A stretch of 61,882 nucleotides of DNA, the filler included, from Globobulimina sp. (taxonomy: Eukaryota), in assembly GCA_003354225.1 (NCBI GenBank). It is 11 parts of 11 records of this genome, joined end to end, with 100 filler letters (N's around TTAATTAATTAA, not from the genome) between each part and the next. Parts side by side here need not be neighbours in the genome. Positions count along the whole stretch, not along the records: positions 56,361 to 61,882 come from PIVH01000528.1; 10 more parts are not named here. One strand, given 5' to 3'. Below, one piece after another: positions 2,752 through 61,882 of this stretch; positions within the stretch are counted from its first letter, which is position 1; every line of letters starts with the position of its first letter. Position numbers and translations under genes: made by a program. Under the pieces are notes generated by a model. It was not told the origin of the DNA. It made no database searches and was given only the letters and a program-made list of their open reading frames with translations.

Positions 2752-3405
2752 TCAACAATGCTTTGTTTGATTTATGGCGTAAAAACTGAAAAACATAATA
2801 ATTATAAAATATGTAACTCCGACAAGAAACGCTATCATACATAAAATTGTTATAATAAAATGAATGTTTAAAAAAATAATAATAATTTGCATAATTGTAT
2901 TTGGTATAATTAATGATAATTGATAATAAATCCAAAATCCAAATGCATTTTGATGTTTTGTGAGGATAAACATGACTGAATATAATGGAGAGAGACCCAC
3001 AAATATGGGCATTAATAATATAACAATAATACAGTTAATAATTTTACAACAGCGATTAGCCTGATTGCAAGTATGAAAACTGTCAGATATCAGATTTGCA
3101 GGTAGTTGATAATTATGCGCAGATATAAAGTACACAGTATATGAAAATAGTGCTATTGGATGTGCTATATCGCCATTATCATCATCATCGATAAACAAAT
3201 ATGATGTAAGACACCAGCCACTAAAAAATAAAAGCAATATCAGTGATATATTAATTCCAAATAAAATAATAAATCCGTGCATGTATAATGTATCAATGAT
3301 TACTATCGATAATGATAAATGCGATATAAATAACACACATAATAATATGCTAAAGAAAGATGAAAAAGTATCGTTGCTTGCGTTAGTATGGTATAGTGCC
3401 CACAT
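2752..3405 (-). CDS. Multi-pass membrane protein, short paralogue of 30606-32126 (possibly truncated)
   Basis: Shares GFIxLFGINIS, RCxxIN, PLYS, YYQLSxIIPxTIMQIII and ITILCMIA motifs with the 506-aa ORF. Confidence 0.65.
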   Translation of the reverse strand: MWALYHTNASNDTFSSFFSILLCVLFISHLSLSIVIIDTLYMHGFIILFGINISLILLLFFSGWCLTSYLFIDDDDNGDIAHPIALFSYTVYFISAHNYQLPANLISDSFHTCNQANRCCKIINCIIVILLMPIFVGLSPLYSVMFILTKHQNAFGFWIYYQLSLIIPNTIMQIIIIFLNIHFIITILCMIAFLVGVTYFIIIMFFSFYAINQTKHC

Positions 3406-4574
3406 TGTTTTTCGAGTATTTAATAATTTGCGTTTTTTAAAAGTTTTCCAAAGACTTTCTTTTCAGCTCAACATATCAATGGATGTAATTATATAATTTG
3501 GGACATGCGAAAATCAAAGGAAAACATGCAAATTTTGATCAGTTAATTTAAACATTTTAAAAAACAATTTAATTATTGATAATCACTAATTGGTTTATCA
3601 TCGGTGCCATCAATTCTGATCAACGTTTTATTATTTTTGTCATAATTTATGATCAACGTTTTATTATACGCACTCCGATATATAATTTATGATCTGCCTT
3701 CTCATCTGGCGCAGAAATCGGTTTATTGAGTTCTTCTGTCATTGAACAACAGGAATCCATCGTTGTTTGAGATTCATCGTCTAAAAGGAGCCATTGAAAA
3801 AAAAAGTTGAAGTACGATACATTTTACCAAAATCGTAACTGTATACCACTCAACAAGTACACTAAAATAACAAGAACATGTAACGGACCGCAATTCATGG
3901 TTTCGTTTGACTATAGTAAGGAATTTCGATCTATGCTCTTGGGATCTTGTTCGTCATTCATCAAACGTGCTAAATCAAGTCATTCAGCGTTATTTAGAAA
4001 ATAATTAATCCAAAAAGCAGAATTTTCAAGAAATATAATAACTCAACGGTATTAAAGACAAAGGGAATGAAAATCACAGAAATTAAATCTTATTTAAATC
4101 ATATTATAGCTCATCACAGTCAATTATACCCATCATTGACAAATTTATCCCATTATATGTCGGTATGGCTCTGTCTTATGCACAAATCACAAATCTATGC
4201 AATCAGAAATGATCAAAGATTGGGTCTGCTGTTGGGGAAAAGGGTGACAATAAACTGAATTAATGTCATGAATTAATGTGATGAATTATGTAAGATTAGA
4301 ATGTAAACTAATTAATTCACCTTTATTTAACTTGTTTTAAGTTGTGGTTTCAGACAATCAGTAATCCATGAGTAATTAATCCATCGCACGCAAATTGTTT
4401 CCAAGGTCATTATCTCTAATTAGCTGTCATGCAAGGTCAAAGAAAACCCAGGAAAAATTCCGTCACGAATCCGAGTCATGGCAACGGATTAATTGATTAA
4501 CGGTTTATTCTGTTTGATTGGAATTTATTTCCAATATAAATATGGTGAGTTAATTAGCTATAAATTTATCATGT

Positions 4575-5549: not shown

Positions 5550-5649
5550 NNNNNNNNNNNNNNNNNNNNNNNNNNNNNNNNNNNNNNNNNNNNTTAATTA
5601 ATTAANNNNNNNNNNNNNNNNNNNNNNNNNNNNNNNNNNNNNNNNNNNN
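5550..5649. other. Artificial contig linker (N44-TTAATTAATTAA-N44); identical linkers at 11195-11294, 16836-16935, 22477-22576, 28117-28216, 33751-33850, 39382-39481, 45011-45110, 50637-50736, 56261-56360
   Basis: Identical 100-nt spacer with stops in all six frames; segment lengths fall from 5549 to 5522 without ever increasing. Confidence 0.98.
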
Positions 5650-11194: not shown

Positions 11195-11294
11195 NNNNNN
11201 NNNNNNNNNNNNNNNNNNNNNNNNNNNNNNNNNNNNNNTTAATTAATTAANNNNNNNNNNNNNNNNNNNNNNNNNNNNNNNNNNNNNNNNNNNN

Positions 11295-52273: not shown

Positions 52274-55200
52274 ATGCAATTGTTAAATCTAATTTTTATA
52301 CCATTCGCAGTGCTGATACGCACACATGCGATGTCAAATGAATGTCTCCATCCTAAAGGTATATAACCCACAAACTGTGTCCAAACCCTACAAACACCAT
52401 CATTTGCCAACATTACATAGGATCGCAATGTAATTATGCCGAACGATTCGTATTAGTGACACAAGATTCTCCCATTAATTGGCACGATGCAGAATTAATT
52501 TGCCAAACAACATTTGGTACAAATTTAGCATCGATTCATTCAAAAAGTGATCATTCTGAATCGGAGAAAATTTGTCAATCGAAACATTCCCGAGAGACAT
52601 GTTGGATTGGTTTACATGACAATAAAAATGAAGCTACTTTTATATGGTCCGACGACACCACGCATGATATTAATTTCTGGGGCGATTGGGAGCCAACATC
52701 TAATTTTGACGGCGATTTAGGCGAAAAGGAAGATTGTGTACATTTAGCACCGTTTAAAAATAACAGATGGAATGATTTAGATTGTTCCGGTGATTCTAAT
52801 AATATACAAATAAAATCGTTTTTATGTAGAAATCCATCATATGATAATAGTAAAGGCTGTGCGTGCAATTGTGATATTTGTCAAATTTATGGAGATCCAC
52901 ATTTTGATACATTTGATGGATTAAAGCATCATTATCAAGGAAAATGTGCGTATTCATATGTTAAGTATTATGTTTTTTATATTTATTCATGTTTTTTTGC
53001 ATATCAATCATATCACAAATGGAATATTTTTATAGGTAACTCCGTGTGATGGCGATCGATCGAAAATACCATTTGAAATTGTCGGAATACACAAACCATG
53101 CTTGAATGGACAATCGTGTATCACTGATATTAATGTGAAGTTATTTGATAAGAATGCGAATGTATTGGAAGACATCATATTATCTCAAGATAAAATAGGT
53201 ACGTATGACTGGTTTTGTTTGTACTTGAGATTAGTTTGCAAAGTATACGTACACATTATGTTTCATATAGCAATATATAACGACGATAAACAAACTGTTG
53301 TAATGGACAAAGCCGTAAAATATATAAATGGTAACGACGATGCATTTTTTTATATTGAAGTGATTGATGAATATCTTCAAATGAGTATATATACCGGAAA
53401 GACAATGATTAATGAGGCATTGGCTGACGTTATCATTCGTGTTACGGATGGACATGGCGCGTTTGGTTCGGCAACAATTCATATCACCGAATGTTGGTTA
53501 GGTAAAGTGTGTGGTCTTTGTGGCAAATATGATCATAATCCATCCAATGATTTGCAGTTACCATTAAATATAAGTGCGGGGGAAGAATATTTATCCATTG
53601 ATAAGATACAACGAGCAGTTGATATGGATTACGAGTCCTGGGAAAGAACAAATAAATTTGGCGATTCCTGGTTGGATGACAGTGCACCATCTATATCCGA
53701 TGAAGTTTAGTTTGTTTAGTTTGCCATAGATTTGTACGTAAAGTAAACTAAAATTGATATGTAGTGTTCACCGGAGATCGTTGTTAAAGCAGATTGTATA
53801 TCTTCAGAAACCACCAAGACATTATGTACCACTGCATATGAACAAGACTGTGATGCACTTTGTAATGGTGATCCTGACGTATTTACGGAAGTGTGGGATT
53901 CCTGTTTATTTGATGCATGTGCTGCGTGTAACATTGATTCGATGACCAAAGAATGTATTATGCCGCTTATAATTGTTTAGTACATGTTTTTTTATGCTTT
54001 GATTGATTCACAAATATATCTTTTTTGTTTTGGTTGCCTTTTTTTTATAAATAGTATTGCGATGCAAAATGTAATGAACCAATATTGCCAACGTATCAAC
54101 CTACCGTGGAACCAACGACAAGCGCACCAACCATGGAAACGCCAAATCCAACCACCTTCAGACCAACGCTAGAACCAACTTAAAAACCCTCCAGATGGCC
54201 GACACTAAAACCAACACCAACACCCACAAAAAAACCTACTTCAGCTCCAACATTTGCTCCCACTGATTTTCCAACATGGAGTCCAACACGAAAACCAACC
54301 AAACGTCCTACACCAAAACCAAGTTTTGTGTTTTTACACACAATTTGTAATCCAAATTAAAATTATTTTTCTCTTATTTAGGCACAGCACCGACTACAAA
54401 ACCAACTGATTCTCCAACATATGGATCATGTACCTGGGACTTTGAAGTTGATATAATATTTATAGTAGATACAGGCTGTGGTAGTGATGACAAACAACAA
54501 GAATATCAACAAGAATTTCTAACACATTTAATCCAATCCATTAAACGAACGCCAAATCCAAAAATTAGTGTGGTTGAATGTAATTCATTTGAAATATTAA
54601 CCCCGTTATTATTATCTGATGACCACTATAACAATATGCATTCACCACTGTCAAATACGGAATTATCAGATTTATTTGACAAATTTTACAATCGTCGAGA
54701 ATATGTTCCTGGCGATAAAACACCGAAAAAACAATGTTTCCAAAAAGCAATACAAGCGTTTGACGACAATAATTTTGGACATATTCGAGAGAAGAAAATC
54801 GTATTAATATCAAGTTGTGTGGAAGATGATAGCGATGGAAGTGTTTGCGAATTAGAGGCTGATAACAGTATGGATGATATTGATGTAATTATTGTTAATA
54901 TCAATTCCGCACAAGATGTAAGTATGGACGATCCCGCACAAAATGCATTTGAATGTTTAATCAGCACAGATTTGTCTCGGATATATACATTTGATACATT
55001 TGCACAATTAGAAGGCAGAGAGGATGAATTATTTGCAATCAGAGCAGAGATTTGTGAGCAACCAACTGATGGTCCTACACCATCACCAACACCGGAACCA
55101 ACTAATGAGCCATCAACAAAACCAACACGATCGCCATTACATAGACCCTGTGCATGGTCATTTGCATCGGACATTGTAATTATTGTGGACGCGTCCTGCG

Positions 55201-56260
55201 GTATTACTGACGACGAAGAAGAGTTACAACAAGAATATGTATCAAATATAGTGCAATTAATTAAGAAAAATGCAAATCCGCGAGTTGCTATTATCGAATG
55301 TGGCAATCAATATGTCCATAACCAAGATATGGTGGTGTTACCATTAGATGACGAGTTGTTGAATAATTTAACAGAGGACCCATTTTATAGTGAAATGAAA
55401 GATGTATATGTTTCCATAGCAAATAGACATGAATATAGTAAGGATTTTGCCACCACGCCAAAGGTACGGTGCTTAAATCAAGCAATTGATGAGTTTGGAG
55501 ATAGCCAACGGCATAAAAAAATTGTATTATTATCAAATTGCATTCATCATAGTGATAGCAACGACGATATAGATGATGAAGTGTGTGCATTTAAAGATGA
55601 ATTATCAGGAAAAGATAATATTGAAGTTATTATTATTAATATTGGTACACAGTTACAATATGGAATCAAATCAGATACATATCAGTGTTTAAATGACGAT
55701 TTTAATAAATTATTTGTTTATGAAGATTTTGATTTGTTGAATAAAAATGAAAATGCATTATTTTCAGTCCGTGATGAAATTTGCCAGTTACCGACGCCAG
55801 CGCCCACTCAAAAACCTACCATTAAACCAACACGGGCACCAACAGAAGGTCCAACATCATCGCCAACACAACCTCCGACAGATAAACCAAGTTTGGATCC
55901 TATATATTTTCTGATTGATTGAAATAAAATAAAATCAATATAAATATATATAGCTCGATTACCAACAAACGAACCAACAAGAAAACCAACCAGCAAACCA
56001 AGTAAATGGCCAACAGCACGACCAACAAATAAACCAAGTGAGCAACCAACGGATTCTCCAACTGAATCACCCACAGATTCGCCAATATTGTCACCAACCG
56101 GCAGTCCAACAAAACAACCAACCAAGAGACCGACGGGAAAGCCAACTGAAGCGCCCACAGAAGCGCCCACCGCCGCACCCAATCAAAGACCAACGCATTC
56201 ACCAACCAATAGACCCACAAAAATACCAACCTCTAAACCAACCCATGGCCCAAGTGAATT
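52274..56260 (+). CDS. Secreted adhesin/mucin-like protein: signal peptide, C-type lectin, VWD, two vWA-like domains and Pro/Thr-rich repeats; multi-exon, 3' truncated
   Basis: MQLLNLIFIPFAVLIRTHA; W..A...C....LASIHS, CWIGL, EP, WND..C; CQIYGDPHFDTFDG, CGLCG.YD....ND; DIIFIVDTGCG and DIVIIVDASCG; PT.(K/E/R)PT repeats. Confidence 0.88.
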
Positions 56261-56360
56261 NNNNNNNNNNNNNNNNNNNNNNNNNNNNNNNNNNNNNNNN
56301 NNNNTTAATTAATTAANNNNNNNNNNNNNNNNNNNNNNNNNNNNNNNNNNNNNNNNNNNN

Positions 56361-56856
56361 AAAAACATCGATAATTGTTGATATTCAAGATACTCATTTG
56401 AGACAACAATTAAATATTGAAAAGATGGATGGTTTTAAAAGTGATGAATTATGGATGCAACGCGTTTTTAGTGATTATGACCATTTACGATTCATAAAAA
56501 CACAAAAACGGATTGACGAAAATACAAACAGTAATCGAGCAAATTCAAAAAATGGGAGAAATGATGATAAAATACCGAATTATCGTCAACCTTTAAAACG
56601 ATCTGGTTTAGGCCCACAAGAAAGGATGCAACGATCCAAAAGATTACATAATTGGATGAATAGCACACGGCCAAGAATTAAAGATCAATACAAATCGGAT
56701 TTTAATGGAGTCTGTGCGGCCCACCATATGAATGATGAACAATGTTCAGTTAAAAATGGCGTGAAATGCAAAGCTGGAAATAAATTAAGAAGTCATCTTT
56801 GTCTTTGCGGTGAATCATCGCATACTATTCCACAATGTAACAAAATATTTAAATAA
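56361..56856 (+). CDS. Gag-like ORF, C-terminal part with Cys/His zinc-binding motifs (5' truncated)
   Basis: VCAAHH....C......C.......HLCLCGESSHTIPQC directly upstream of RT. Confidence 0.7.
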
Positions 56857-56900
56857 TATTTATACAGTGATATATATGAAGACTTAAATTTGTAATTTAT

Positions 56901-58712
56901 TTGTCATTGAATTATTGTTTCCCTTCAACGGAATCTAACGTCCCTTCTTTGTTCTGTTTATACACTCTTTATTCAGAGAATATATTACCAACTTTGAGGG
57001 TAATCGATACAGAATGTGCTAACTTACTCCAAAAGTTAGTAAATTTGTGGAAAAGTCCGCCAGAAATTAATCATCATTTCAATATAAATTTATTCCGTGA
57101 CTACCTAAGTAACCATCCAAATGGTGAAATAGAGATTGAATTCATTGAGAATGGATATCCATTATATTTAAAAAATAGAGATCCAACAAAATTATGTAAA
57201 GTAATCTCCAATATAGTCAGAGACAAACGTGATTTGAAAGCGATATTGACAAGAATTGTAAAAGAGGCACGAAAAGCATATATAACACAAACAAAGAGTC
57301 AGTTACATTATAACTTGAACCTTTTATGTGTTCCTAAGAAGAATAATGATACGAATTTAATGACTGAGATTCGTGTAGCAAGACATGGTTCTTTTGCTAC
57401 ACAGAGATCTGTTTCCATAAATAAGTTAATTTCGAAGGAGAAATGCAAGATGCCCACACTTCCAAATATCCATAAATATGTAAAATTACTTTTAGAATAT
57501 AACTATGTGTCTCTACGTGATTTAAAAGATGCTTTCAGACAATTAAATTTAGCATCAATTGATGCTCAATATGTACAATATTGTATTTTTGGTTTGGCTT
57601 TCAGAGATTTGAGACAATCGTATGGCATCGCCTCAGCAGCAGCAAATTGTCAGCAATTTGGTCAAATACTAATATGGATCCTTAAAAATAAATATTTACA
57701 CAATATACAAAGGGACAGAATCCTTGTCCACATTGACGATTTTATTTTAGCTGCACAGTCTGAAGAGGAAGCCATTTTTCTCGCCAATAGATTTGATAAA
57801 ATGTGTAGTGACTTAAATGTTGCTGTTTCACATGCAAAGGATGAGAATGCGGTCTATAAAGGTGTTGTACATGGCATTGGTTTTAATTTAAAAACAAAAC
57901 ATGTACATATACCTAGTCATAAATATAATGAATTGATCAAAGGAATAAGTTTAATGATTAAGTATCGATATGCAACAGGAAGAGCGCTCGAATCTGTTTG
58001 TGGGAAAATAATGCATTGGTCCCAATTACGGAAACCTGCCAAAATTCTTTGCTATCGATTACTACGCTTAATACATGAAAAAATCAGAGCAAATTCGAGG
58101 TTAAAAAATAAAATATTTTGGATACCTGACCCGATTGTTCGTGATTTGAAATTCTGGCTACAATATGCCACATTTATGCGTAGAGTAACCATGAAATCCG
58201 TCATTCAACAGCCCTCAATAACAATTACTGGAGCTACAGATGCGAGCAATATCGGTGGTGGCTTCATAGTGGGTTCGTTTTATGGTGCATACGAATTTTG
58301 TGATGAATCAAATATAAATGGCATAAATCATAGGAGAATGCATATAAATTATCAAGAAGCACATGCAGTAATTATGCTACTTCACAATTATCGTCATATG
58401 CTTTCTGGCCGTCAATTATTACTATATATTGATAATACGTCGGTAATGTATAGTATTTATAAACATTGGGCTGGAAGTGAAATATTAATGGAATACATTC
58501 AGGAAATTGTGCTTTTAATGTGTATATATTCAATTGGTTTGAGAGTTGAATTTATACCTTCAACTTTTAATGGTTTGGCAGATTCTTTATCTAGATTTGA
58601 TTGGAAACGATTTTATAATGAGATTGATTGTTATAATCTTCCTATAAATGATAAAGAGACATTGCTTGAATACTACCCAACTTTGCGACTTTTGCACAAA
58701 TATGATCTTTAA
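56901..58712 (+). CDS. Reverse transcriptase + DIRS-type RNase H
   Basis: VPKK, SIN, DLKDAFRQL, YG..SA, HIDDF, HGI, L..VCGK; RNase H TDAS..G.G, HINYQEA, IDN, N..AD.LSR. Confidence 0.95.
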   Translation: MSLNYCFPSTESNVPSLFCLYTLYSENILPTLRVIDTECANLLQKLVNLWKSPPEINHHFNINLFRDYLSNHPNGEIEIEFIENGYPLYLKNRDPTKLCKVISNIVRDKRDLKAILTRIVKEARKAYITQTKSQLHYNLNLLCVPKKNNDTNLMTEIRVARHGSFATQRSVSINKLISKEKCKMPTLPNIHKYVKLLLEYNYVSLRDLKDAFRQLNLASIDAQYVQYCIFGLAFRDLRQSYGIASAAANCQQFGQILIWILKNKYLHNIQRDRILVHIDDFILAAQSEEEAIFLANRFDKMCSDLNVAVSHAKDENAVYKGVVHGIGFNLKTKHVHIPSHKYNELIKGISLMIKYRYATGRALESVCGKIMHWSQLRKPAKILCYRLLRLIHEKIRANSRLKNKIFWIPDPIVRDLKFWLQYATFMRRVTMKSVIQQPSITITGATDASNIGGGFIVGSFYGAYEFCDESNINGINHRRMHINYQEAHAVIMLLHNYRHMLSGRQLLLYIDNTSVMYSIYKHWAGSEILMEYIQEIVLLMCIYSIGLRVEFIPSTFNGLADSLSRFDWKRFYNEIDCYNLPINDKETLLEYYPTLRLLHKYDL

Positions 58713-58827
58713 TGAGATTATAGCCACAAACTTGATCAGTTTTATTGTACTATTAATATTTAATGATGAGCATTAAAAATGTGATTGATTTGATATTTGT
58801 AACTTCTATGAGCTATATATACAAAAT

Positions 58828-60253
58828 ATGACCTTGTATATACACACAGCTCAGTTGCCCATCCAACACAGTAACAGTTTGTGTGTAGCTCGCTATAAAA
58901 ACCTTAGACAAATATCAAAAAACCTCTCTTTTTTTGTCCTGGTCTCAGAAACAAAGTGTTTCTTTTATAAAATGTTTGTATCTATAATTAGATTTGCAAA
59001 GAATTTCTGTATGGAATCGTCCTTTTGCAAAACGTGATATTCAAACAACCAAAAGAATATTAAGTGATATTTTTAGATCAAGAAGAATATCTACCAAATG
59101 TAACTATATATCAGTTTTAAAAGATTGGTGGGGATATTGTATTGAAAATGGAGCAGATCCATTTACCCCACAGATTAATCCAACAATTGCAATTTATTGG
59201 CAATACGATAGAACCCTACGTTTAGGTTCATGCAATTCTCACTCAACATGGTCATCTGCACTATCATGGTGGGTTAAAGCACATGGACGTACACCAATTT
59301 ATTTTAGGGATGATTTCTATAGTAATATTCATGGAAATATGGTTGGATTATATTCAAAACAAAGAAAAGAGAGAAAACCGATTAAAATTCAATGGTTGGT
59401 AAATTACCTCAAATTGAAAAATATTGTACCACTTACATGGGAATTTTGTACATTGGATGAGTTAACTTCAACTTATCTATTAATTATGGCATTTTTCACA
59501 ATAAGTCGACCGGCCGAGATTTTATACACAGATAGTACAGAAAATCCGGCCTGGGAGATAATTACAACTGGTTTAAGATGGGGTGATATTACCATACATA
59601 ATGTGAATAAACCATATAATCGGAGATATAAAAAAATATTAATTCATTGGTATAAAAACCAGGAATTTCGTGATCAGCCAAAGGAAATTTATATGGCACC
59701 ACCTATTTGCGATAACGTTATGTGTCATTGCCGGATTTTGGATTACTTTCAATTGTATTTGATTATATTACAAAAACGAAAATTATTAATCCAACAATTA
59801 CGAGCTAAATCCTCACAATCTAAGAAATTCAAGAAACGTTTATTGAATTTAGATATCAATTCGACAAATTATATATTTGTAGGATCAAATGGAGTGATTT
59901 GGAAACCATCAAAGCTTTCGGAATTAGTAAAGGATTTGATTTTAAAATTGAAAATTCCGAATCCTAAATTTTATCCATCATATAGTTTCCGTATTGGTGC
60001 AACATCTTTATGTCATTTACAAGAAATTGATTTATTAAAATTGATTCGATTCGTAGTTTGGTCAATTAAGAATTTACCCCATGTGTCAAATAGATACATA
60101 AATTTCACGATACAACAATTAAGAATCCTACCATTTGAAATGATACATGGTCGAAATCGACCTGGTGGGAGAAATATTGATAAAAGTAAAGGAAATTTAA
60201 AGACTTATAATTTATGGGAAGGTAATTTATGTGAAGATTTATTTCACAGCTAA
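58828..60253 (+). CDS. Tyrosine recombinase; main ORF 58994-60253, tentative first exon 58828-58870
   Basis: T..NY N-terminal helix, AFF..SRPAE, KNQ, YSFRIGATS, W, RYI. Confidence 0.9.
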
Positions 60254-60829
60254 TTAATTGATCCATTGAGGGAGATAAATGATAGTGATGCAAATTCATG
60301 AAATGATATTTTTTTAAACAAGACTTACAAACTTAATATTTCGACAAACTTGTTTGTTGAAATAATCTTGTCTGGATAACAGAAGTGCGATATCAAAATA
60401 TGGCACTCTTTTCACAACACTCAGGGGCACACAGGGAGGAGATCTGTTATAGAAACGATTTGTTTATATACAAAAACACAGAGTTTCTATATTGATCAAC
60501 CGGAGAATAAAGAACCGACAACTTCGTTCTTCGGATATTTACCCGTATGAGTCAGATCATTGAGTTTGTGAAATGAGTGGCCTTTTAGAGTAAAGTTCAA
60601 TCCTTTACCATTTCTAAAATATATATTTTTATGTTATTACAATTTTAATATGTTTGATATTGCGCTCTGTAATCATCATTGGTATTGAATATTTAATGTA
60701 TCATAATTTAAATATTATTATTGTTTCTTGTGTTTTTTATTTAGAATTCGTTTTTAAAAAACTCCAAGTACCAATCAATAACCACTCAGTCAAGAACACG
60801 GTCAACAAAGTCAGAAACACTTAGTCGCA

Positions 60830-61570
60830 ATGAGTGATATTGCTAATCTTGTTTATGTGGAAGGAACACATGTTCCGCCAAATAAATTTCAATATCCCAA
60901 CGATCACGAATTTGCAGATTATTACGTAAAGATAAAAGCTGTGAAATCAGCAACAAATCGTGGTGATTTAGCAAGCGAAACCATTGCTGCTATAGCAGCG
61001 TTGGTGAAATCGAAGGTGATTTTCCCGTATGGGAACAGAAAAGGTTGGGATGAGGATTTGCAAGGTTTGAATGATGCATATTTTAAAGCATCGGCATACG
61101 AAGCAAATCACCAAGACAATCCTCCTCCGACTCATTATGACATTGTCACGCTATTAGCCGACAACAGATTGTTCGACGAGGACTTACCAACGCGCAGACA
61201 AGCAAACTTTGATAGACGCAGAGAACATTTTGATTTAGATCTTGCTTTGGATGCGTGGAAATTCCCAAATCCACCAGAAGTTGCATGCGTTGTTGGCAGA
61301 GCGGAAGATTCGTCGTCAGATCCTGAGGCTGTAACACATGATGATGAAATTGAGCATGATAAGGATGACAAGGAAGAGGAGAAAGTGTCGAATGATGCGG
61401 ATCAGTCATTCTTTGAATCCAAGGATGAAACGATTGAGATTATATCGGATGAGGAGGATATTGAAAATAAACAAGACATCCCAATCCGTGATATGTTCAA
61501 GGATTCAAAATTTGTAAAGAAGGATAATTTTTTTTTTTCAAAGAAAGAACCAATTAAATATGGCATCTAA
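60830..61570 (+). CDS. Hypothetical protein with acidic C-terminal half; possibly ORF1/gag N-terminus of the retroelement
   Basis: 246-codon ATG-initiated ORF co-oriented with the element; no motif recognised. Confidence 0.55.
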   Translation: MSDIANLVYVEGTHVPPNKFQYPNDHEFADYYVKIKAVKSATNRGDLASETIAAIAALVKSKVIFPYGNRKGWDEDLQGLNDAYFKASAYEANHQDNPPPTHYDIVTLLADNRLFDEDLPTRRQANFDRRREHFDLDLALDAWKFPNPPEVACVVGRAEDSSSDPEAVTHDDEIEHDKDDKEEEKVSNDADQSFFESKDETIEIISDEEDIENKQDIPIRDMFKDSKFVKKDNFFFSKKEPIKYGI

Positions 61571-61882
61571 ATGTAATTAAATATATTCCACATCGAATCA
61601 ACACTAAAAAGGAAACGATTGGAGCAAAAACATAATAAAGAAAACAAAAATGAGGTTTTAACACACTTTTACACAACACAATAACGGCACAAATAGATAT
61701 GAAGCAATTAGAACAATTTTCTCATATCCAATACATTGTCGATTCTTCACTAATTAAATTAATTAATTGTTTATGGTTTTATTGAGCGATTAAAGAAAGT
61801 AATTAATTATCGATCAGATTTGATCAGAAATATTGCGAAAGCGAGGAAATTAAAACAATTAAATTATAATCAAGTCCGTGGA

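Follow-up and report, generated by a model that had tools for sequence, protein, structure and literature searches.

The window analysed here is a stretch of 61,882 nucleotides from Globobulimina sp. (assembly GCA_003354225.1), in which 11 contigs, with lengths dropping steadily from 5549 to 5522 bases, are chained by ten linkers of 44 N, TTAATTAATTAA and 44 N (at 5550-5649, 11195-11294 and so on to 56261-56360). Because this chain is artificial, genes on either side of a linker are not genomic neighbours. The last contig (positions 56361-61882; PIVH01000528.1) is present in its entirety with 5522 bases, and it carries the genes of a retroelement with a tyrosine recombinase (YR), which is the subject of this report. 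On the plus strand, with the standard code, three uninterrupted frames without mutual overlap were found (56362-56856, 56880-58712 and 58988-60253). They correspond, in this order, to a gag-like gene, a reverse transcriptase (RT) with RNase H, and a YR, in agreement with the three open reading frames (ORFs) of the original prediction, which had been made from the sequence of the contig. A further frame, here called ORF-A (overall span 60830-61882), lies downstream of the recombinase and had been overlooked there. The features are collected in Table 1. A second copy of the element was not found elsewhere in the window.

Table 1. Positions of the features of the retroelement contig, counted along the whole window
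Feature	Position	Strand	Basis
Whole contig: cut element copy and head-to-tail joint	56361..61882	+	bounded by linker and by contig start and end
gag-like gene, 3' part	56362..56856	+	56% identity to L001 gag residues 178-342
RT/RNase H frame, 610 codons	56880..58712	+	frame scan, alignment, weak Pfam matches
Candidate 3' splice site before RT (AG, phase 1)	56975..56976	+	follows a pyrimidine-rich tract
RT motif A Asp	57519	+	invariant in 55 aligned sequences
RT motif C HIDD	57729-57740	+	motif seen in translation
RNase H D454, E493, D518, D568 (D/E/D/D)	58239, 58356, 58431, 58581	+	invariant in 55 aligned sequences
YR frame, 421 codons	58988..60253	+	frame scan, predicted fold, profile match
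Candidate 3' splice site before YR (AG, phase 1)	58990..58991	+	xxA/Gxx pattern in 12 loci
YR SRPAE	59504-59518	+	catalytic Arg motif
YR K223	59654-59656	+	catalytic Lys
YR YSFR (HxxR box)	59981-59992	+	aligns with HxLR of PDB 3nkh
YR W358	60059-60061	+	catalytic-site Trp (VVW)
YR Y370	60095-60097	+	nucleophile Tyr
Non-coding joint between YR and ORF-A, 576 bases	60254..60829	+	conserved blocks 60501-60623 and 60643-60692
ORF-A, first part, with ATG start	60830..61513	+	48% identity to the 494-codon L001 frame upstream of gag
AT-rich, stop-containing insert, 273 bases; candidate GT..AG intron (GTAAAG...AG)	61514..61786	+	absent from L001
ORF-A, continuation, running off the contig	61787..61882	+	matches L001 1243-1333

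The assignment of the RT/RNase H gene is carried by its catalytic residues. A search of a 5.8-billion-protein set gave 95 relatives, 88 of them at E ≤ 1e-56, and the Pfam domains precomputed for them include RVT_1 (PF00078) and RT_RNaseH (PF17917). In an alignment of the contig RT with 54 of these relatives (55 rows), the Asp of motif A, both Asp residues of motif C and the four RNase H residues D454, E493, D518 and D568 are invariant. Between motifs B and C, this RT carries no inserted SAM domain. The frame ends about 40 residues past the last RNase H Asp and no frame of the contig has a Pfam match to a methyltransferase, which bears out the earlier statement that none follows RNase H. Neither a protease nor a DDE integrase was matched by Pfam in any frame.

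The third frame is assigned to the tyrosine recombinases on the basis of a predicted Cre-like fold and a profile match. The top Foldseek matches of its AlphaFold model (mean predicted local distance difference test score, pLDDT, 82.4) are Cre, XerH, Tn1549 Int and Flp (E 1e-5, probability 1.00), and a profile made from the contig frame and 20 relatives matches the PDB 3nkh integrase (E 1e-3), the YSxR falling on its HxLR. Pfam Phage_integrase is matched by only 2 of the 21 YR relatives. Translation and the 21-row alignment located all the recombinase motifs that had been predicted (YSFR, VVW, SRPAE, KNQ and the Tyr). The form (S/T)RPxE occurs in 20 of the 21 recombinases and (Y/F)KN(Q/K) in all 21, while all 20 sequences that extend over the Trp and the nucleophile Tyr have both. 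The reading VVW in place of GRW is real, but it is a trivial change, the catalytic-site Trp being retained. The departure from the canonical R-K-H-R-H/W-Y site lies in the HxxR box: a YxxR/YxxK box, with Tyr for His, is found in 20 of the 21 recombinases, so that the Tyr of YSFR is lineage-wide, and His is seen only in the most distant member, P0115. The second Arg of the box is R in 14 and K in 7; these seven, with Lys at the column of YR residue 335 (YSLKNG-type), cluster in one subgroup. The transcriptome of the foraminiferan Nonionella stella contains one YR relative, 43% identical. The literature consulted, mainly abstracts, describes no YR element of Foraminifera, including Reticulomyxa.

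Relatives for which DNA is available are labelled L001, L002 and so on, the closest being L001 (RT 76% identical). The gag frame of L001 has 343 codons, and since the contig starts inside gag, the first ~180 codons by comparison with L001 are missing. The predicted gag-like Cys/His ORF is therefore right as to the Cys/His module, but what is present is only the 3' part of the gene, truncated by the contig start. The module (56713-56838) forms the terminal part of the frame; its Cys and His columns are common to five related sequences and differ from the canonical CX2CX4HX4C knuckle. The gag frame has no Pfam match and no credible PDB match, and in its AlphaFold model (mean pLDDT 56) only the Cys/His end is confident. 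As a side observation, the protein relative P0102 has gag residues 27-202 fused in frame to the C-terminal half of a recombinase, that half itself being short of 19 residues, and RT/RNase H is absent; it is an internally deleted derivative of the same element family.

Two further lines of evidence concern the family as a whole. One is selection: between the contig and L001, the ratio of nonsynonymous to synonymous substitution rates (dN/dS) is 0.11 for RT and 0.11 for YR, which indicates purifying selection on both genes, and for gag the proportions of nonsynonymous (pN) and synonymous (pS) differences are 0.29 and 0.77, the latter saturated. The other is copy content. A single public sample carries the stretch, and 171 contigs of its run X1 align at ≥ 80% identity: 34 at ≥ 99%, 18 at 95-99%, 18 at 90-95% and 101 below 90%. 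The depth over the stretch is a sum across contigs and not a copy number; these contigs fit many diverged copies of the element. The gene order recurs as well: YR follows RT in 11 of the 12 related loci whose sequence extends downstream by more than 200 bases from the RT match; L016, a match at 23% identity, is the sole miss. Relatives were absent from the viral contig and prokaryote genome contig collections. The family is common in environmental assemblies, where it is unnamed. Apart from this, the clusters indicated by Atlas feature matches have mollusc, basidiomycete, cnidarian and euglenozoan members and are leads only.

As predicted, motif C of the RT reads HIDD instead of the canonical (Y/F)xDD. 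In the 55-row alignment, the Tyr position of this motif is occupied by His in 44 rows, by Tyr in 10 and by Ile in 1. Searching 1.84 billion representatives with a profile gave 56,180 matches at E ≤ 1e-3 (3,058 at E ≤ 1e-30), with scores descending from 830 to ~350 bits and then reaching a plateau at 340-267. From the contig RT and 216 proteins of ≥ 430 residues, shorter rows being removed, a wider set of 217 rows was made, in which His occupies the position in 82 rows (HIDD 72, HVDD 9, HVDG 1); the other forms are YLDD 50, YIDD 24, ILDD 17, VLDD 11, YVDD 10 and rarer ones. Outside the H forms, Y, F, I, V, L or M stands at this position in the wider group, and because I, V, L and M are also common there, His is less exceptional than had been assumed. 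A FastTree tree of the 217 rows places the element family in a 101-tip clade (support 100), with six switches of the H state. An IQ-TREE tree (LG+G4, quick) of 125 rows gives an inner 94-tip clade (SH-aLRT 99), mostly H with several Y or F sub-branches, and places the contig RT in a 30-tip clade (support 94) of 29 HIDD and 1 HVDD. The possibility, raised with the prediction, that HIDD is a private mutation of this copy thus fails, because the odd motifs are lineage-wide. The clade appears to share H(I/V)DD in RT, YxxR/YxxK in the recombinase and a fast-evolving ORF-A ahead of gag. No HIDD reverse transcriptase was found in the literature, which was covered mainly at the level of abstracts. One long RT relative, P0156, has no detected YR part.

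The position of ORF-A gives a clue to the structure of the unit. Because ORF-A follows YR here and precedes gag in L001, the contig and L001 are circular permutations of one unit of ~7.1 kb; after circular permutation the two are collinear. The contig has ~225 additional bases within ORF-A as compared with L001, and deleting 61514-61786 restores a single open frame to the contig end; this insert may be an intron that only part of the family carries, or else a disrupting insertion or lesion. The dN/dS of ORF-A against L001 is 0.41, which suggests that it evolves under some constraint. It has no Pfam match, no credible PDB match and no usable Atlas match, and a homologue search gave only the L001 protein itself. 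The frame upstream of gag in L006 is not significantly similar to the L001 ORF-A (E 2.2), so at deep divergence the order ORF-A before gag is drawn from L001 only, together with the tight spacing between the upstream frame and the leader exon (see below) in L006.

The non-coding joint between YR and ORF-A holds two conserved blocks: 60501-60623 matches L002 3269-3388, which is the end of contig L002, and 60643-60692 matches L001 319-370. The peak of the summed contig depth falls in the bin 60431-60615, within the joint. The joint has no internal repeat, does not fold better than shuffles (z -0.71) and has no significant similarity to the repeat of L010 described next; no Rfam family was matched in the contig. 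Loose contig ends at 60425 and 60516 were considered as alternative junctions and rejected, as they proved to be diverged copies when aligned to the stretch. The L010 locus (RT 56% identical) carries a perfect 103-base direct repeat (2955-3057 and 3387-3489), which begins ~220 bases past YR and whose second copy extends to the end of the contig; L011 and L014 terminate at the first copy. On the other side of the unit, the frame upstream of the leader stops only ~60 (L001) or ~40 (L006) bases before the leader ATG, so the element ends hardly lie there. The terminal or joint sequences of the element are most likely located in the joint at 60254-60829.

Two explanations of this head-to-tail joint have to be weighed. 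It may be an assembler path through split direct repeats, or it may be a real tandem array or extrachromosomal circle. The latter would agree with the circular permutation of the contig and L001, with the absence of an internal repeat from the joint, and with the circular DNA form through which YR elements are thought to pass according to PMC6681497. We nevertheless consider a real joint rather unlikely: short-read assembly of an A1...B1A2B2 element yields exactly such permuted contigs, L010 has a B1-A2-B2-like repeat after YR, and contigs L002, L011 and L014 end at or near the joint region. The run X1 contigs are compatible with both explanations. The contig itself runs from mid-gag through YR, over the head-to-tail joint and into ORF-A.

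With these genes in hand, the element can be compared with the known YR groups; apart from one Panaeolus protein, they were compared by their published descriptions. That the contig carries a tyrosine-recombinase retroelement, as the original prediction had it, is borne out by the RT/RNase H residues, the predicted fold of YR, its profile match and the gene order. As in the DIRS order, an RT/RNase H gene with its catalytic residues is accompanied by a tyrosine recombinase, in which R, K, R/K, W and Y are retained in a Cre/Xer-like predicted fold, and neither a DDE integrase nor a protease is found by Pfam. The architecture appears Ngaro-like: the order is gag, RT/RNase H, YR, and no methyltransferase follows RNase H, as these elements are defined in PMC3783388 (fungal groups) and PMC8547959 (Cafeteria burkhardae). 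A unit of ~6-7 kb adds to this likeness, and the direct repeat after YR in L010 would be compatible with B1-A2-B2. This lineage differs from Ngaro-like elements in having His instead of Tyr in motif C, Tyr instead of His in the HxxR box and Lys for the second Arg in 7 of 21; in an extra 494-codon gene before gag; in ATG-less genes behind conserved candidate acceptors; and in an RT only ~24% identical to that of the one named, basidiomycete relative.

This relative is a Panaeolus cyanescens protein (P0265, 1222 residues) with RT/RNase H and then a collinear YR part. The YR part has the canonical HSFRRG and GRWSS, and its hhalign match is weak (E 0.034 over 298 columns). In the tree, P0265 groups with P0089-P0091, outside the element family clade. 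DIRS1-like and PAT-like elements also combine RT/RNase H with a tyrosine recombinase and presumably share a circular DNA intermediate, and an element of either kind that lost its methyltransferase could give the present gene content. Such an origin would be difficult to see in trees, as YR-element RT trees resolve group relations poorly (PMC6681497) and those made here contain no named DIRS1 or PAT sequences. It is highly improbable all the same. These elements have an adenine-methyltransferase after RNase H and often overlapping ORFs (PMC3783388, PMC6681497), whereas here no methyltransferase is seen, either after RNase H or elsewhere, and the ORFs are separate from one another. The inverted terminal repeats and the internal complementary region that DIRS1 has (same sources) are not seen here either, although the span of the contig excludes the element ends. 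Moreover, the L010 repeat is direct and not inverted, and the only named relative comes from Agaricomycotina, whose described YR elements are Ngaro (PMC3783388). VIPER/TATE of kinetoplastids, protist YR retroelements without methyltransferase, with split direct repeats and a gag with a Cys/His box (PMC6681497), resemble the present element by description only. An Atlas feature match to a cluster with Euglenozoa members is a lead for this comparison and nothing further.

The starts of the genes showed an unexpected regularity. In 7 of 10 loci, including this contig, no in-frame ATG precedes the conserved N-terminus of RT or falls just within it, and many "M" starts in the protein database are prokaryote-style start calls on non-ATG codons. 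At 8 loci the Pro codon of the first conserved RT motif is preceded, at a distance of exactly 11 bases, by an AG; these count as 7 distinct loci, L011 and L012 being 99.6% identical. This AG is always the third base of one codon and the first of the next, while the encoded residues vary. For YR, an in-frame ATG is wholly absent from 6 of 12 loci, and in another 4 it occurs solely within the conserved part; in 12 of 12 a phase-1 AG lies just upstream of the conserved N-terminus: exactly 11 codons from the anchor in 7 loci, 12 codons in one, and before a shared AYRDN start in the four loci of the L010 group. Likewise, gag opens at a phase-1 AG acceptor in L001, L006 and L008 (3 of 3).

A possible source of the start codon is seen in two relatives. 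Between ORF-A or the upstream frame and gag, L001 (2042-2090) and L006 (1176-1260) have a leader exon with an ATG, both ending in phase 1, with the donors CAAG/GTAAGT and CAAG/GTACGT, respectively. The ~30 intron bases that follow are conserved (L001 2091-2126 and L006 1261-1299; GGTCTG..CCCTTT, then ATCATGTGAGTC). Donor and intron bases are shared even though the RTs of L001 and L006 are just 55% identical, and the conserved bases may be a cis-acting signal within the intron. Because the phase is 1 at the donor and at each of the three acceptors, a single leader could be used for gag, RT/RNase H or YR, and these genes are probably translated from alternatively spliced messages. The literature, consulted mainly as abstracts, contains nothing relevant on leader-exon splicing in YR elements or on introns in Ngaro.

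RT and YR might instead be made as fusions with the gene upstream, by frameshifting, readthrough or short local introns. The RT frame opens 24 bases past the stop of gag and stands in the -1 frame with respect to it, and phase-1 acceptors could serve short local introns equally. Such fusions are improbable, as the frames are non-overlapping with stops in between, and the spacing of gag and RT ranges from 24 to ~400 bases. The sole phase-1 GT near the gag end would give a stop when joined to the RT acceptor; in the last 25 RT codons no phase-1 GT is conserved across the 12 loci, and the contig has none at all there. Since no conserved donor lies near the RT end and the frames do not overlap, local fusion introns and frameshifting are disfavoured against a shared leader.

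The missing starts, the cut gag and the interrupted ORF-A could also be taken together as the decay of an old, inactive copy. RT and YR frames without ATG, stops in the ORF-A insert, the absence of terminal repeats from the contig, and the identity below 90% of most related run X1 contigs would all suit a dead relic. Yet the 610- and 421-codon frames are open with every catalytic residue retained, their dN/dS is as low as 0.11, and the cut of gag is an assembly boundary. Decay would not explain the ATG-less frames, because the absence of ATG and the AG at a fixed position recur in relatives down to ~41-55% RT identity. We regard decay as quite improbable.

Taken together, we favour, with a probability of roughly 0.75, the reading that the contig holds a single copy, truncated on both sides by the contig ends, of a multi-copy YR retrotransposon with Ngaro-like gene content, which belongs to a large, deep clade and whose start-less genes are probably spliced. 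The unit would most likely comprise, in this order, ORF-A, the short ATG leader exon, gag, RT/RNase H, YR and terminal repeats, in ~7.1 kb. If the element is active, its full-length RNA would be reverse-transcribed by RT/RNase H, and the DNA copy would close into a circle and be inserted by the recombinase, as has been proposed for Ngaro and PAT elements. The leader exon would supply the ATG and be joined in phase 1 to one of the three acceptors of gag, RT/RNase H and YR.

Several observations weigh against this reading. Concerning the genes, this copy remains below the Pfam cut-offs (RVT_1, 26.1 bits against 29.6, E 8e-6; RT_RNaseH, 19.5 against 24.8, E 1e-3), and its YR frame has no Pfam match. 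The IQ-TREE tree was rooted by our choice on P0089-P0092, and the outgroup includes one named sequence only. Concerning splicing, which we infer from signals in genomic DNA, the contig starts inside gag and so lacks the leader region; in this subfamily the donor motif is found only in the two loci covering the region, and a search of the more distant L008, L013 and L015 did not reveal it. Concerning the ends, no direct or inverted terminal repeat was found in the contig, L001, L002, L004 or L006, all of which are shorter than the unit, and split repeats are for this reason unproven for the lineage; inverted pairs in these contigs are only short, imperfect and at chance level (76-79% complementary). 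The repeat of L010 may be either a split-direct-repeat (B1-A2-B2-like) end or an assembly loop. Finally, ORF-A is interrupted in this copy. With gag cut, no terminal repeats in the contig and ATG-less RT and YR frames, the copy is incomplete and cannot be called intact, so that "apparently intact" in the original prediction is not borne out.

The preceding contig carries a 523-codon open frame (54351-55922, plus strand) in which a PT-rich repeat follows each of two VWA-like domains (Pfam PT, E 3e-10; VWA, E 7e-6). It is unrelated to the element, and because it lies on a different contig it gives the element no context.

A wider reading may tentatively be considered, to which we give slightly less than even odds. 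The clade would be a deep, species-rich protist, probably rhizarian, YR lineage that combines retrovirus-like leader splicing, the unspliced RNA serving as template, with a fourth gene and swapped active-site residues, and that ranks at the superfamily level in the DIRS order. Retroviruses and the long terminal repeat (LTR) retrotransposon Ogre express part of their genes via splicing. The putative splicing here would resemble theirs in that one primary transcript is both the genome and the precursor of the spliced messages; unlike theirs, it would have three genes sharing one ATG leader exon, in an element inserted by a YR.

Among the orders of retroelements, the YR retrotransposons are understood least, and accounts of their gene expression and end formation are still largely models. 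If the wider reading is true, the DIRS order would gain a new lineage at the superfamily level as well as a new expression strategy, and retrovirus-style subgenomic splicing would have a testable case outside the LTR elements. The fragmentation of these elements by gene callers would also find an explanation in ATG-less genes with a shared leader. The His-for-Tyr change in motif C, which toggles on the tree, together with Tyr for His and Lys for Arg in the recombinase, offers natural experiments on dispensable active-site residues. As the family is frequent in environmental assemblies and yet nameless in them, it has probably been missed by the repeat annotation of rhizarian genomes.

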